18,811 bases of DNA from UHGV virus genome UHGV-0168127; one strand, given 5' to 3'. Source of the DNA: a virus. The notes under the pieces were generated by a model, which was given only the letters and a program-made list of their open reading frames with translations, searched no databases and was not told the DNA's origin. The translations under genes and the position numbers were made by a program. Positions 9,283-13,632 of the stretch are shown here, in pieces (position 1 is the first letter of the stretch; every line of letters starts with the position of its first letter).

Positions 9283-9393
9283 AATGCGTTGATAGCTAAA
9301 GGAATTTATTTGGATATTTTTTCGCGGGATTGAGATTCAGATCGTTTTTTTACTGCGGCGGGTATTGCTGTGACGAATGGGCTGGCTGCGGGC

Positions 9394-9420
9394 AATAAAA
9401 AACCCAGCACTATGGCTGGG
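9394..9420 (-). terminator. Intrinsic terminator downstream of cI
   Basis: On the - strand CCCAGC-CATAGT-GCTGGG perfect hairpin followed by TTTTTTATT, about 22 nt after the cI stop. Confidence 0.55.
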
Positions 9421-9441
9421 CTTGATTCATAGCTGGGTTTG

Positions 9442-10146
9442 TTAACCGTGTTTTCTGTATGTCTGAGGCATGCTACCAATCACCTTGCCGAATATGAGTA
9501 TCCTGTTCATTTCTTCTTTTTCGATTGGCTCCCACGGGCGATAAGTCTGATTGTCGGAGATGACCAACAGCTTATCTTTCATCTTCTGGAGGCGTTTAAC
9601 GTGGGAAGTATCGTCGTAGATAAAGGCGTAGATCCCGTCACCATCAAAATGTTGGACGCTGATGTCGACGAACAATAAGTCGCCTGGTTCAATGGTCCCG
9701 GACATGCTGTCTCCGCGAACATTAATGATTCTGATCTGCTCAGCCTTCCTGCCATTAAACATCCGACGAGCATCTTCCACTGAGTATTCCACGGATCTAA
9801 GCACCTCTACAAATTCGCTGTTGATGGCTCCTGGCCCGGCGCTTACGTAAAAGTCTAGCGCCTCAATGCGGAATGTGTCAGTAGGGGCCAGCTCTGTTTT
9901 CGGCTGCGAAATTGCGGGCATTTGACCATCTTCACGCATTGGGCCAACTCCGGTTGAAAGCCACTCAGTGCGAACGCCAAGCGCATTGGCGATCTCAACG
10001 ATTTTAGTTGAGCCTCGGGCATTGCCACTGGTCAGCCTCCAGATGGTGGGTTGAGCAACGCCAGACGCCTTAGCTAAAGCGCCCTGAGACATGCCAGATA
10101 GTTCCATCGCCTGATTCAGGCGTTCTGCAAGAGTTTCTTTTTTCAT
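9442..10146 (-). CDS. cI: CI-type repressor: N-terminal HTH plus C-terminal S24 (LexA-like) autopeptidase domain
   Basis: Track ORF trimmed to the ATG at 10146 (MKKETLAERL...); HTH segment MSQGALAKASGVAQPTIWRL; GDSM and KRL motifs consistent with a Ser/Lys catalytic dyad; divergent from the cro-like gene across an operator region. Confidence 0.85.
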   Translation of the reverse strand: MKKETLAERLNQAMELSGMSQGALAKASGVAQPTIWRLTSGNARGSTKIVEIANALGVRTEWLSTGVGPMREDGQMPAISQPKTELAPTDTFRIEALDFYVSAGPGAINSEFVEVLRSVEYSVEDARRMFNGRKAEQIRIINVRGDSMSGTIEPGDLLFVDISVQHFDGDGIYAFIYDDTSHVKRLQKMKDKLLVISDNQTYRPWEPIEKEEMNRILIFGKVIGSMPQTYRKHG

Positions 10147-10154
10147 GAGTTTTA

Positions 10155-10226
10155 ATTTATACGCTTGCGTATTGATGGTCAAAACACGTTTAGCTATTGC
10201 CTAAATCAATACGCATTGCTATTATC
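10155..10226. promoter_or_regulatory. OR-like operator and divergent promoter region (candidate pRM leftward and pR rightward)
   Basis: Palindrome ATACGCTTGCGTAT (10159..10172) and a related site near 10207..10226. Rightward promoter candidate: -35 TTGCCT (10197..10202), 17-nt spacer, -10 TATTAT (10220..10225). Leftward candidate: -35 TTGACC (complement of 10177..10182), -10 ATAAAT (complement of 10155..10160), placing the start at or near the cI ATG (leaderless, as for lambda pRM). Confidence 0.5.
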
Positions 10227-10257
10227 AATTCACACCAATACTCATAGGAATTGGAAG

Positions 10258-10485
10258 ATGACGAACAAAACAATCCAGCGCGCCATTGATATCGCTGGTA
10301 GCCAGAAGAAATTAGCCGACCTTTGCGGCGTTGCTCAGCCGACGGTATGGCGCTGGTTGCACGGCGGCGGCATTGATGCCCGCTACGTAATGAAGATTGT
10401 CACTGCAACAAACGGCAAGCTAAAACCAGCAGATATCCGTCCAGACCTCGCCCAGCTGCTTGAGGCGAATAACACAGCCGCTTAA
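10258..10485 (+). CDS. cro: Cro-like HTH regulator (75 aa)
   Basis: Track ORF 10165..10485 trimmed to the ATG at 10258; HTH segment SQKKLADLCGVAQPTVWRWLHG; divergent from cI. Confidence 0.6.
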   Translation: MTNKTIQRAIDIAGSQKKLADLCGVAQPTVWRWLHGGGIDARYVMKIVTATNGKLKPADIRPDLAQLLEANNTAA

Positions 10486-10514
10486 TTGCGGCCCTAACCA
10501 CGAAAGGGAAAGCA

Positions 10515-11081
10515 ATGCATTCACTTGCGTATCAACAGAGTACCGGACTTGAACAACGTCCGTTGATTTCGATTTATCAAAGTGTTCCGCGTAATAACCG
10601 TAAGCTAATTCGAATACGGGATGCAGTTAAGGCCTGGCAAAAAGCTACGCCGGGCCAGTCTCAGGTTCACATTTCTCAGCTGGTTGCGAAAGAGTGGCTG
10701 GCGCGCGGCGGGAAGGGGTTGTTACTGGCAGGTTCTGAACACAACACGAAGCAGAACTTCTTCCGGATGATTAACGATCCGGGCCCGAAGAACGACAAGG
10801 GGTTGATGCTACTGATCCCCGTCATTATCGACGTGATGGCGCGGGATAACGAGAAAGTGGCGAGAGAGTTCGGTCTGGTCGCAAAGACTGAGGCCGAACT
10901 GATAGCCGAGGCCATGAAAGAGTGCACTGAAGCGCATCAGGCGAAGTTACTTGGTCAGCCGATACAACGCCTTGAGAAAGAGGTGAGAGAAGCTGCTGAA
11001 GCACTTCTGCGCTTTCTGCCCACTGAATCAATCGCCGCGGTGGTGACAAGTCTGGCCGCTATGGCGCCGGGAGTTATGTGA
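10515..11081 (+). CDS. Early regulator at the cII position (188 aa), possibly YdaT/CII-like; function unassigned
   Basis: Immediately follows cro in the rightward operon; far larger than lambda CII; no motif I can assign with confidence. Confidence 0.4.
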   Translation: MHSLAYQQSTGLEQRPLISIYQSVPRNNRKLIRIRDAVKAWQKATPGQSQVHISQLVAKEWLARGGKGLLLAGSEHNTKQNFFRMINDPGPKNDKGLMLLIPVIIDVMARDNEKVAREFGLVAKTEAELIAEAMKECTEAHQAKLLGQPIQRLEKEVREAAEALLRFLPTESIAAVVTSLAAMAPGVM

Positions 11082-11317
11082 TGGGAAGTATCAAAAATGG
11101 CGAAAGCCAGTCTGCGTCAACAGAACTGGCCTTCAGATGCAAATCGTGTGCACTCATTGCAGGAGGAATAATGGCAAAAAATCCACGCTATTACCATACC
11201 GCTGTACATAAAAACATAACCCGCGACCGCTTCATCCGCTCGGTTAATCCGATTGTGGCAGAGAAGATGCGCGCCATCCTGGAAGAACTGAAACGTAAGG
11301 AGAGTGGCCGTGGGTAA
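11078..11317 (+). CDS. Hypothetical small protein (79 aa, or 48 aa from the internal ATG at 11171)
   Basis: Track ORF; strong AGGAGG RBS precedes the internal ATG at 11171, so the shorter form may be the real product. Confidence 0.3.
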   Translation: MMGSIKNGESQSASTELAFRCKSCALIAGGIMAKNPRYYHTAVHKNITRDRFIRSVNPIVAEKMRAILEELKRKESGRG

Positions 11318-12209
11318 CGTATCCAATTTAGCCGAAGCCAGAGAGGCCAGAAGGCTCCAGAAACCGCGCACGAATGACGGTAAGGGGTTTGCCTTGCTGC
11401 ACCGTAAAATTATGGATGTGCCGTTCTACAAGGACGCTGAGGCGGCTCATTTATGGGTTCACTTGCTCCTGCGCGCTAATCACGAACAGACACTGGTATC
11501 TACTGATGTTGGCGATGTGATCTGCGAGCGCGGAGAGTTCATCACCGGGCGAAACACACTGGCAATGGAAACGGGTTTGACCGCTGATCGCGTTAAATCC
11601 CTTCTCCGTAAATTCCAGAATCTGGGCATGATCACCACCAAATCGAACAACCGTTTTACTGTTCTAAAAGTGGTCAAATATGACGAATATCAGTCAAATT
11701 TTTGTCCAGCAGATGTCCAGCCAGCGTCCAGCCCAAACATAGTCGTACCAATGCCTGCGGAGGTGGAGTGTCCAGCCGATGTCCAGCCAGTGTCCACAGA
11801 TAACAATATATTAAATAACTTACTACCTAACGGTAGTAAGTATGTCGCAAATGACCAGAAACCCGCTGAAGAGAAAAAGTCTCGTTTGTCATGCGATGAA
11901 GTATGGCAATGCCTGAAAGACGAACTGCCTGAAGCACGGGGATGGAGATGCCTCACTGATGAGCGACGCAATCTGATCCGCACATTCTGGGGTAAGGCTA
12001 ATAAGATTGCCCGCAACCTGGACGGCAAGCCGATGGATATGGACGGTTTCAGAAGCTATCTGCGTTACATCGCTCAGAACTGCCGCTGGATGCTTGAAGA
12101 CCGACCAGACCAGAAGTCTGGGAAGACCTGGCGCCGCATGAAATTCGATAAGTTCCTGACCGAAAAGCTCTACATCGAAGTGCGCGAGGGGGATCGTGAT
12201 GACCGCTGA
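11304..12209 (+). CDS. Replication initiator (lambda O-like in position; winged-helix N-terminal domain)
   Basis: Precedes and overlaps the DnaB-like helicase gene; contains iteron-like repeats internally, as lambda O contains ori. GTG start at 11304 or 11310. Confidence 0.6.
   Translation: MAVGNVSNLAEAREARRLQKPRTNDGKGFALLHRKIMDVPFYKDAEAAHLWVHLLLRANHEQTLVSTDVGDVICERGEFITGRNTLAMETGLTADRVKSLLRKFQNLGMITTKSNNRFTVLKVVKYDEYQSNFCPADVQPASSPNIVVPMPAEVECPADVQPVSTDNNILNNLLPNGSKYVANDQKPAEEKKSRLSCDEVWQCLKDELPEARGWRCLTDERRNLIRTFWGKANKIARNLDGKPMDMDGFRSYLRYIAQNCRWMLEDRPDQKSGKTWRRMKFDKFLTEKLYIEVREGDRDDR
11702..11799. repeat. Iteron cluster (putative origin of replication) inside the initiator gene
   Basis: Six copies of (A/G)TGTCCAGCC-like units in two groups of three with about 11-bp spacing (11704..11733 and 11768..11798), followed by an AT-rich stretch at 11800..11832. 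Confidence 0.55.
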
Positions 12210-13632
12210 TTTCATGGCTGTACCACAAAACCTCGAAGCAGAGCAGAGCGTTATCGGTGGCCTGCTGCTGGATGATGACAACAGCGAGCGAGTCCAGAAG
12301 GTTCTGGCGATGCTCAAGCCTGAATCGTTCTACAGCCGACCTCACCAGCTGATCTTTGCCGAGATGCGCCAGATGTTCCGCGACAACAAGCCAGTCGATG
12401 GTCTGACATTGTTCGACGCGCTCGAAAGCAAAGGGCTCGCGGAGCAGGTAGGTGGCTTTGCTTACCTGGCGGAGATCGCCAAGAACACTCCCAGCGCTGC
12501 AAACATCGTGGCATACGCTGCGTCAGTCCGGGAAGCCGCAATGGAGCGCTACGGTATCAGCCGCCTGACCGAAGCTACTGAGCTGCTGTATTCCCGCAAT
12601 GGCATGAGCGCCACGCAGAAGTACGAGGCCATTCAGGGTATTTTCACCCAGCTCGCAGACCATTCAAAAACCGGTAGTCGCCGTGGGTTGCGGTCGTTCG
12701 GCGAGGTTATGGATGACTGGGTAGCAGATCTGGAGAAACGCTTTGACCCTTCAGGCGAACAGCGCGGCATGAGCACCGGCATCCCGTCACTCGACCGGCT
12801 GCTGGCGCCGAAAGGTCTGGTTAAAGGCTCTCTGTTCGTGATTGGCGCAAGGCCAAAGATGGGCAAGACAACCCTGTACGGTCAGATGGCGATCAACTGC
12901 GCGGTTCGTGAGAAAAAGCCAGCGCTGATGTTCAGCCTCGAAATGCCGGGCGACCAGATCCTCGAAAAACTGGTTGGTCAGAAGTCTGGAGTTAACCCGA
13001 GCATTTTTTACATGCCAGCCACGGATGACGCCGATGACCAGTACCAGGGCGATTACGACGGCGACTTTAAGAAGGCGATCGCCACCGCCGGGCGATTGAG
13101 TGAAATCGACATGCTGTACATCGACGATACTCCTGGCCTGTCACTGGCGCACATCGTTAGCGAAAGCCGCCGAATCAAGCGCGAGAAGGGCTGCGTAGGA
13201 ATGATTTTGGTTGACTACCTGACTCTGATGACCGCCGAAAAAGCCGACCGTAATGACCTTGCCTACGGGATGATCACCAAAGGGTTGAAGAACCTCGCTA
13301 AAGAGCTTGGCTGCGTCGTCGTGCTGCTGACCCAGCTCAACCGCGAACTGGAGAAGCGAGTGAATAAACGCCCGTTACCGAGCGATTCCCGCGACACAGG
13401 ACAGATTGAGCAGGACTGCGACTACTGGGTTGGTATCCACCGGGAAGGTGCTTTCGATGACAGCGTGCCGCCGGGAGAAACCGAGTTAATCCTGCGACTC
13501 AATCGCCACGGCAGTACCGGAACGGTTTATTGCAATCAGATCAACGGGGCAATTTACGACACAGACCAGCAGGCCGCCGCCGCAGAACGACGCGGGCGTG
13601 AGCAGCAGCCGAAAAAGAAAGGGGGATTCTGA
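12199..13632 (+). CDS. DnaB-family replicative helicase
   Basis: N-terminal EAEQSVIGGLLLD motif and Walker A GARPKMGKT typical of DnaB; start overlaps the initiator stop. Confidence 0.9.
   Translation: MTADFMAVPQNLEAEQSVIGGLLLDDDNSERVQKVLAMLKPESFYSRPHQLIFAEMRQMFRDNKPVDGLTLFDALESKGLAEQVGGFAYLAEIAKNTPSAANIVAYAASVREAAMERYGISRLTEATELLYSRNGMSATQKYEAIQGIFTQLADHSKTGSRRGLRSFGEVMDDWVADLEKRFDPSGEQRGMSTGIPSLDRLLAPKGLVKGSLFVIGARPKMGKTTLYGQMAINCAVREKKPALMFSLEMPGDQILEKLVGQKSGVNPSIFYMPATDDADDQYQGDYDGDFKKAIATAGRLSEIDMLYIDDTPGLSLAHIVSESRRIKREKGCVGMILVDYLTLMTAEKADRNDLAYGMITKGLKNLAKELGCVVVLLTQLNRELEKRVNKRPLPSDSRDTGQIEQDCDYWVGIHREGAFDDSVPPGETELILRLNRHGSTGTVYCNQINGAIYDTDQQAAAAERRGREQQPKKKGGF

Follow-up and report, generated by a model that had tools for sequence, protein, structure and literature searches.

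The 18,811-nucleotide stretch of viral DNA analyzed here (UHGV virus genome UHGV-0168127; hereinafter the window) encodes a replication initiator of the type represented by the O-like proteins and by gp18 of phage L, and the coding sequence of this initiator contains six short direct repeats (iterons) followed by an AT-rich stretch and a perfect palindrome, a combination that has the anatomy of an origin of replication (Table 1). The open reading frame (ORF; 11304/11310-12209) matches the PHROG family phrog_345, 'replication initiation O-like', with an E-value of 6e-68, in agreement with a preliminary description of the region that had placed the repeats inside an initiator gene. The initiator is 98.7% identical to gp58 of Enterobacter phage CobraSix, which, together with Klebsiella phage Chronis, is the nearest sequenced phage (98% and 93% DNA identity, respectively); the gene is annotated as 'hypothetical protein' in CobraSix and as 'putative DNA replication protein' in Chronis.

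Table 1. Features of the putative origin and of the genes that surround it (window coordinates; aa, amino acids).
Feature	Coordinates	Strand	Comment
O-like / phage L gp18-type initiator gene	11310..12209	+	phrog_345; alternative GTG start at 11304
Predicted N-terminal winged-helix domain, coding region	11436..11672	+	aa 43-121; predicted recognition helix aa 92-104, ADRVKSLLRKFQN
Iteron triplet 1	11703..11735	+	11703 TGTCCAGCAGA; 11714 TGTCCAGCCAG; 11725 CGTCCAGCCCA
Inter-triplet spacer, 33 bp	11736..11768	+	sequence hypervariable, length fixed
Iteron triplet 2	11769..11801	+	11769 TGTCCAGCCGA; 11780 TGTCCAGCCAG; 11791 TGTCCACAGAT
AT-rich stretch, candidate DNA-unwinding element	11797..11825		encodes Asn/Ile-rich DNNILNN
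Perfect palindrome, ACTTACTACC-TAAC-GGTAGTAAGT	11818..11841		10+10 arms, 4-nt loop; right edge of the AT-rich stretch
DnaB-family replicative helicase gene	12196..13632	+	Pfam DnaB_C E=7e-58; DnaB N-terminal E=1e-31; phrog_19 E=1e-131

Anatomy of the repeat region

Repeat analysis of the window recovered six 11-base pair (bp) units in exact phase between 11703 and 11801, arranged as two triplets whose starts are 66 bp (6 x 11 bp) apart and which are 93% identical over 28 nucleotides (nt). The preliminary description had assigned the core TCCAGCC to these repeats; the six units, the 11-bp spacing and the two clusters stand, but TCCAGCC itself is exact in four units only, and the common core is GTCCAGC, which is exact in five of the six units, with GTCCAC in the sixth. 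There are six copies of GTCCAGC in the window, five of them within 84 bp, compared to 2.1 expected per whole window; among 300 dinucleotide-preserving shuffles, no 7-mer had five copies in 100 nt, and the maximum, four copies, was reached in two shuffles. No second cluster of the motif was detected elsewhere in the window, and the core does not occur as its reverse complement (GCTGGAC) in the origin region. Furthermore, no inverted repeat was found within the iteron units, and reading of the repeat listings revealed no hidden dyad symmetry in 11-bp or 22-bp units.

The AT-rich stretch that had been reported to follow the repeats is readily recognizable: the G+C content of positions 11800-11839 is 22.5%, compared to 48% window-wide, and, as judged by nearest-neighbour energy, only one 25-mer in the window is less stable than that at 11801-11825. 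An AT-rich stretch is found at the same position in all relatives compared. The right boundary of the element has to be revised, given that the end coordinate proposed earlier, 11835, cuts through the palindrome at 11818-11841, which the preliminary description had missed. This palindrome is the sole perfect inverted repeat in the window with arms of at least 10 bp and a short loop (0.14 expected) and, as single-stranded DNA, folds into a hairpin of -8.6 kcal/mol (z=-4.7).

Conservation of the arrangement and selection at the DNA level

In tblastn searches, the initiator is 42-54% identical to HK022 O, VT2-Sakai O, ST64T gp18 and Sf6 gp43, over 91-100% of the protein and with E-values from 1e-63 to 1e-106; proteins of Pantoea, Cronobacter and Klebsiella phages fall in the same range of 42-54% identity over the full length of the initiator. 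The repeats are kept in every homologue examined, so their loss in related initiator genes, which the preliminary description had named as grounds for rejecting an origin, is not observed. All 128 alignable homologous loci contain 3+3 units with an 11-bp period and a triplet-to-triplet distance of 66 bp, despite length variation elsewhere in the linker, and the units are followed in each case by the AT-rich stretch and the palindrome.

An explanation of the repeats by a repeated peptide motif under selection at the protein level had also been raised; the motif in question would be CPADVQP...S, which is present twice and could, for example, serve in the linker. The two 33-bp triplets are indeed in frame with each other, encoding CPADVQPASSP and CPADVQPVSTD, and a comparable duplicated peptide is present in all homologues. 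However, the successive units within each triplet begin at codon positions 1, 3 and 2, and the same heptamer accordingly encodes parts of Cys-Pro-Ala, Val-Gln-Pro and Ser-Ser; because 11 is not a multiple of three and the heptamer is read in three frames, peptide selection cannot yield the 11-bp pattern. The cores are also kept at synonymous third positions while the adjacent codons vary freely. Among 54 distinct sequences with the core of the window, taken from 80 loci in collections of viral and bacterial genomes, variation affects only 6 of the 42 core sites (2 of the 14 third codon positions), as against 31 of the 33 sites of the inter-triplet spacer (all 11 third codon positions), and the sixth unit is identical in all 54. 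In units 2 and 5, position 7 is the third base of a Gln codon (CAG/CAA) and hence synonymous; it is occupied by G in 53 of 53 sequences of the window's clade and by A in 15 of 15 sequences of the clade with the core TGTCCAAC, with no mixed cases. The peptide changes between clades exactly as the DNA core does, and the segment that the repeats encode is predicted to be disordered. The explanation by peptide duplication therefore fails on both the reading frames and the third-position conservation of the cores, and we give it next to no credence. The combination of invariant cores, a hypervariable spacer and a fixed distance of 66 bp implies a constraint on the DNA and its geometry.

The palindrome shows a different form of conservation. 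In all 128 loci, a loop of 4 nt, T(A/G)A(C/A), is flanked at a near-constant position by perfectly complementary arms of 9-10 bp. In a comparison of 22 distinct versions of the arms, each of the 10 pairs had substitutions in both arms, and no pair had a one-sided change. Across these versions, 96.8% of the cells are paired; shuffling lowers this value to 62%, and displacing the partner by 1-3 columns lowers it to 28-46%. The anchoring of the alignment on the best inverted repeat per locus favours pairing. Despite this anchoring, a chance origin of a perfect 9-bp repeat with a fixed loop within 90 nt is very unlikely. G-T (wobble) pairs are absent from the nine inner pairs in all 22 versions, and the lack of G-T intermediates points to a constraint on DNA pairing rather than on RNA structure. 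The palindrome is thus a third conserved element of the putative origin.

Core variants and mosaic structure of the initiator genes

The genes for phage L gp18, ST64T gp18, Sf6 gp43, HK620 O, HK022 O and VT2-Sakai O share with the window the six 11-bp repeats in the 3+3 arrangement with 66-bp phasing, at the same position in the gene, as well as the AT-rich stretch, the palindrome and a downstream gene for a DnaB-type helicase. The differences are in the core, in the sequence of the palindrome arms, which in the window differs from the L/Sf6/HK022-type arms, and in the N-terminal domain: outside of the first ~55 residues, where it is similar to HK022 O, the window initiator is only about half identical to the other types. 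The core of the window and its clade, TGTCCAGC, conforms to the family pattern N-N-N-CCA-R-C; the other cores are TGTCCAAC in L, ST64T, Sf6, HK629 and ENT47670, TTACCAGC in HK022 and VT2-Sakai, TTACCAAC in Pantoea PA-1, GTGCCAAC in Klebsiella ST512, Raoultella, Yersinia and Erwinia, AATCCAA in Ewingella and Biostraticola, and TGTCCG in Morganella. The CCA at core positions 4-6 is retained in most types, the Morganella type being devoid of it. At nearly all loci, the truncated sixth unit has the form ...CCAC or ...CCAT, the exceptions being the Morganella locus (L127) and one other (L135).

As judged from the sequences, the iteron type goes with the N-terminal rather than the C-terminal domain of the initiator. 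Clusters of N-terminal domains at 75% identity mix only cores that differ at positions 7-8, whereas 8 of the 16 clusters of C-terminal domains hold more than one core type, mostly mixing cores that are different at positions 1-3. Chimeric genes display the same modules in various combinations: those at loci L072-L084 join a window-type N-terminal domain and iterons to the palindrome and C-terminal domain of the ENT47670 type, L114 has the reverse combination, and in protein P0012 the first 55 residues and the C-terminal domain are of the window type and enclose a helix-wing segment and repeats of the HK022 type. The junctions of these recombinant genes fall within or close to the conserved AT-rich stretch, and the palindrome goes with the C-terminal half rather than with the iterons.

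A more distant exchange is seen in Erwinia phage Eho59 (vB_EhrS_59; L012, 229-1179), where the N-terminal domain, the 11-bp iterons and the palindrome of this family are combined with a C-terminal domain that is 70% identical to aa 178-299 of lambda O (E=6e-63), and the next gene is lambda-P-like instead of encoding a DnaB-type helicase. A lambda-P-like gene is found downstream only in relatives with a lambda-type C-terminal domain. Loci L130-L133 and L136 likewise combine the N-terminal domain, iterons and palindrome of this family with a C-terminal domain that is 70% identical to this part of lambda O. From these combinations, the C-terminal domain appears to be exchanged to match the partner in helicase recruitment, and the N-terminal domain together with the iterons behaves as one apparently exchangeable recognition module. 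Under this interpretation, the suggestion of the preliminary description that the window carries a distinct initiator-origin specificity pair is plausible.

The initiator gene of the window itself appears to be mosaic within the N-terminal region. The segment 11311-11464, that is, the first ~150 nt of the initiator gene, has 85-86% DNA identity to the O genes of HK022, HK620, VT2-Sakai and many Shiga toxin (Stx) phages, and megablast produced no match to those O genes for the rest of the gene. From these comparisons, a mosaic boundary can be placed close to residue 55, ahead of the helix-wing segment with which the iteron type is associated. The alignment columns with the highest mutual information with respect to iteron type include the recognition-helix/wing positions A92, S97, R100, N104, T110 and K111. 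A recognition code derived from residue-to-base covariation was considered and abandoned because many other columns score equally and there are five iteron classes, each corresponding to approximately one lineage.

Natural variants with a single triplet were identified as well (277 aa; proteins P0002-P0008 and L144, 3001-3834, the latter in Salmonella enterica contig AAPTRA010000044.1). These lack exactly 22 residues (66 bp), that is, one triplet and the spacer, so that TGTCCAGCCGA TGTCCAGCCGG TGTCCACAGAT are left; they remain in frame, retain the AT-rich stretch and the palindrome, and are followed by an intact gene for a DnaB-type helicase. One of the variants, P0008, occurs on 20 contigs. 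Either three units suffice or those prophages cannot replicate. Two further loci are in assemblies assigned to non-enterobacterial species: the 799-kb contig of Chryseobacterium sp. 18061 (L123) encodes an enterobacterial-type initiator with iterons (TGTCCAAC) and palindrome of the Sf6 type, and a 386-bp contig of Xanthomonas pisi (L134) contains an enterobacterial-type initiator gene. Both could stem from contamination or mixed-culture assemblies instead of reflecting the true host range.

Comparison with known origins

The arrangement described here is known: in phage L, six 11-bp repeats TGTCCAACGGA have been reported as 'likely the origin' (Zaworski et al., PMC8022706), and the GenBank record of Sf6 has a rep_origin feature over the repeats, 'reminiscent of the phage lambda origin; similar to phage HK620'. 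According to the same account of phage L, the evidence for its origin is genetic and concerns the replication region as a whole (Hilliker 1981, cited in PMC8022706). The window thus represents a new sequence variant, with the core TGTCCAGC. The passages of PMC8022706 that deal with the origin and the Sf6 record cover the repeats and mention neither a palindrome nor a constant distance between the triplets. The modest additions made here, which we did not encounter in other sources, concern the conservation of the palindrome and the compensation between its arms, the constancy of the 66-bp distance, the association of a range of core variants with the N-terminal domain, and the existence of natural deletions of one triplet.

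The preliminary description likened the arrangement to the lambda origin within gene O, and the comparison with the lambda and P22 origins that it proposed shows that this likeness extends to position and element order but not to the DNA-binding domain or to the kind of iteron. As in the window, ori-lambda is located mid-gene, in the linker between the N-terminal origin-binding domain and the C-terminal recruitment domain, and consists of iterons, an AT-rich stretch and a palindrome with a 4-nt loop, in this order; lambda O binds the iterons, and the resulting O-some opens the AT-rich tract (PMC7466680). The lambda palindrome (39162-39189; L143, 563-590), located immediately to the right of the AT-rich tract, has a TGGC loop and arms of 12 bp that include one mismatch. 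By contrast, a BLASTP comparison of the window initiator with lambda O detected nothing (E=12), and the Pfam domain PF04492, which is matched by lambda O (E=6e-36) and P22 gp18 (E=7e-38), is absent in the window initiator and in HK022 O. Lambda has four 18-bp iterons with internal dyad symmetry and spacings of 20-24 bp, which pair with each other as inverted repeats, whereas the window has six 11-bp direct repeats; the earlier remark that the iteron sequence is unlike that of lambda was thus correct. Finally, lambda O acquires the host DnaB via the P protein, whereas the phage in the window encodes its own DnaB-type helicase.

The P22 origin also lies within the initiator gene (gene 18, annotated as rep_origin), and the partner is, as in the window, a phage DnaB-type helicase, gp12. 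The similarity between the window initiator and P22 gp18 is confined to the C-terminal domain and is weak (E=6e-4, aa 184-294); the N-terminal domain of gp18 is the lambda-type PF04492 domain, unlike that of the window, and the four ~20-bp repeats of P22 have dyad symmetry (TTTACC...GGTAAA), again unlike the window. Reading by eye, we located in P22 a palindrome CCCCCT-AA-AGGGGG after the AT-rich stretch (L014, about 2465-2482). Given that the N-terminal domains of the lambda and P22 initiators are unrelated to that of the window, the palindrome appears to be shared by otherwise differing origins. Dyad symmetry beside the AT-rich part was reportedly seen already in early comparisons of lambdoid origins, by Grosschedl and Hobom in 1979 and Moore et al. 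in 1981.

A system with direct repeats is known in phage SPP1, where gp38 binds direct repeats of oriL that are located in its own gene and adjoin an unwinding element, and the phage also encodes its own DnaB-family helicase (PMC6316719). Unlike the window, SPP1 has a separate helicase loader, gp39, and a second origin, oriR. The N-terminal domain of the window initiator matches phrog_2514 (E=2e-23) and phrog_186 (E=7e-15), both annotated as 'DnaD-like helicase loader'. The PHROG families with this annotation are common in phages of Gram-positive hosts, and proteins of Staphylococcus and Lactobacillus phages match aa 25-145 of the window initiator with ~30% identity in tblastn searches.

Predicted domains of the initiator

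The AlphaFold2 model of the initiator, which is based on a shallow alignment and has a mean predicted local distance difference test (pLDDT) score of 65, consists of an H-beta-H-H-wing domain (aa 43-121, pLDDT about 70-84), a disordered segment (aa 129-191, pLDDT about 30) and a helical C-terminal domain (aa 195-293). The origin DNA codes for aa 132-178, that is, for part of the predicted disordered segment between the two domains. In a Foldseek comparison with the PDB, the best matches were all winged-helix DNA binders (CodY, CRP, SmtB and MarR), with weak scores (E>=0.013). A family-profile sequence search of PDB chains gave no meaningful match, and the NCBIfam search gave no match. The predicted N-terminal winged-helix domain is the presumed iteron binder, and the DnaB-type helicase, whose gene overlaps the end of the initiator gene at the stop codon, is presumed to be the partner of the C-terminal domain.

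A putative replication origin within the initiator gene

We consider it highly probable that the region 11703-11841 is the origin of theta replication of this phage, recognized by the phage's own initiator and embedded in the part of the initiator gene that codes for the linker. The anatomy of the region, its conservation, the selection at the DNA level and the co-inheritance of the iterons with the N-terminal domain are matters of observation, and this comparative evidence, in particular the conserved repeats and the DNA-level selection, fits the iteron-type origin that the preliminary description had proposed. The activity of the region as an origin, binding of the initiator, unwinding and helicase loading are suggested by analogy with lambda O and ori-lambda and with gp38 and oriL of SPP1.

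The following mechanism can be envisaged. The N-terminal winged-helix domain would bind the six 11-bp units. These are direct repeats, devoid of dyad symmetry and approximately one helical turn apart, so that monomers would probably line up head to tail along a single face of the double helix. Head-to-tail binding to 11-bp direct repeats is known for winged-helix response regulators such as PhoB; this is an analogy only. The fixed 66-bp distance would hold the two triplets in phase, and the nucleoprotein complex would open the AT-rich stretch at 11797-11825, whereupon the C-terminal domain would deliver the phage's own DnaB-type helicase, encoded immediately downstream. The palindrome would mark the far edge of the opened region, either as a hairpin or cruciform or as a symmetric binding site. 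Our confidence in the details of the binding geometry is much lower than in the identity of the origin.

Alternatives to an origin were assessed for the repeats, for the palindrome and for the region as a whole. The repeats could bind the initiator but serve in control, through autoregulation, titration, handcuffing or exclusion of related phages, with replication starting elsewhere. Plasmid iterons serve in both initiation and control, single-triplet variants exist in nature, and cloned ori-lambda iterons inhibit lambda-type phages (PMC3349717). However, the repeats always precede a very low-stability AT-rich stretch and a palindrome, which amounts to a full origin anatomy, the same order of elements is found in the proven ori-lambda, and the window contains no second cluster of the motif, so that an exclusively regulatory role appears improbable. 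Alternatively, the AT-rich stretch and its flanks might be a joint at which mosaic genes are assembled, the repeats persisting through recombination or slippage rather than function. The positions of the junctions in the recombinant genes and the natural 66-bp deletion between the triplets are compatible with such a scenario, which nevertheless leaves unexplained the invariant cores next to a hypervariable spacer, the fixed 66-bp phasing in 128 of 128 loci and the strictly compensated arms of the palindrome; we regard it as extremely improbable.

For the palindrome alone, a role as a minus-strand intrinsic terminator of leftward (antisense) transcription has to be considered, with the hairpin at 11841-11818 followed by a T-rich run. 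A terminator scan of the minus strand does report this site, with 10 pairs, a 4-nt loop and the tail TATTTAATAT, but the yield of the scan is at the chance level (4 sites vs 3.4 in shuffled sequence), the stem is AT-rich (4 of the 10 pairs are G-C), and the tail is a poor U-tract. Furthermore, no promoter-like site pointing at the palindrome was detected in 9300-12400, and a palindrome is similarly located at the corresponding position of the origin in lambda and, by eye, in P22. These observations, together with the absence of G-T from the nine inner pairs in the 22 versions, make the terminator very unlikely.

Several points weigh against the proposed origin or parts of it. A search of the open literature on HK022-, HK620-, Sf6- or L-type origins for experiments found only predictions, the statements on phage L and Sf6 among them, and no binding assay, footprint or test of autonomous replication. 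The one-triplet natural variants suggest that six units may not be required. The winged-helix assignment comes from a medium-confidence, shallow-alignment model and from weak Foldseek matches, none with E<=0.001. Linkage may explain part of the co-inheritance of the iterons with the N-terminal domain, given that 27 bp separate the two, and the columns that covary with the iteron type are inseparable from phylogeny. As for the palindrome, it may act as a hairpin or cruciform after unwinding, or else as a symmetric binding site.

The assignment of 11703-11841 also provides a probable origin for a widespread group of temperate phages and prophages that are found in Enterobacter, Klebsiella, Salmonella and related bacteria. 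This family, with at least eight core variants each apparently tied to its own N-terminal domain and with a C-terminal domain that seems to be swapped to suit the helicase partner, offers a natural example of modular initiator/origin specificity, which could supply orthogonal replication modules or explain the compatibility of co-resident prophages at the level of replication. Current understanding remains unchanged in that such an arrangement is expected for lambdoid phages. A bolder and rather doubtful proposition is that these loci form a mechanistically distinct class of origins, unlike that of lambda and characterized by head-to-tail binding of winged-helix monomers to 11-bp direct repeats in two triplets exactly six repeat lengths apart, an obligatory, strictly base-paired palindrome beside the unwinding element and re-targeting of the initiator through a few residues of the recognition helix; candidates for the latter are residues 96/97, with Lys-Ser or Lys-Ala accompanying GTCC, Lys-Tyr accompanying TGCC and Gln-Tyr accompanying TACC. 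Were this the case, the natural variants would be ready-made orthogonal initiator/origin pairs.

Gene neighborhood

A search of the window for DnaA boxes (TTATCCACA, up to two mismatches) gave 45 matches, where 49 would be expected. Within the origin, the sixth unit, GTGTCCACA, alone matches, which is at the chance level, so that a role for DnaA boxes is unsupported. No Rfam family was matched anywhere in the window.

The order of genes around the initiator, namely CI, Cro, CII-like, orf48-like, initiator, DnaB helicase and Ren-like, is that of a standard lambdoid early-right operon. In the immunity region (9442-11081), the minus strand encodes a CI-type repressor (9442-10182, phrog_4), from which a Cro-like gene (about 10258-10485, phrog_35) diverges, and a 188-aa CII-like activator is encoded at 10515-11081 (phrog_163, no Pfam match). 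This region indicates that the window comes from a temperate lambdoid phage or prophage. A small ORF (11078-11317) between the CII-like gene and the initiator gene matches phrog_1913, 'tail protein' (E=9e-26), with a weak match to the Pfam family DUF2740. Homologues in the RefSeq records of HK620, P22 (orf48) and other phages bear the same 'tail protein' label; because the place of this ORF in the early-right operon is fixed, the label almost certainly arose as a mistake in annotation and was then copied from record to record.

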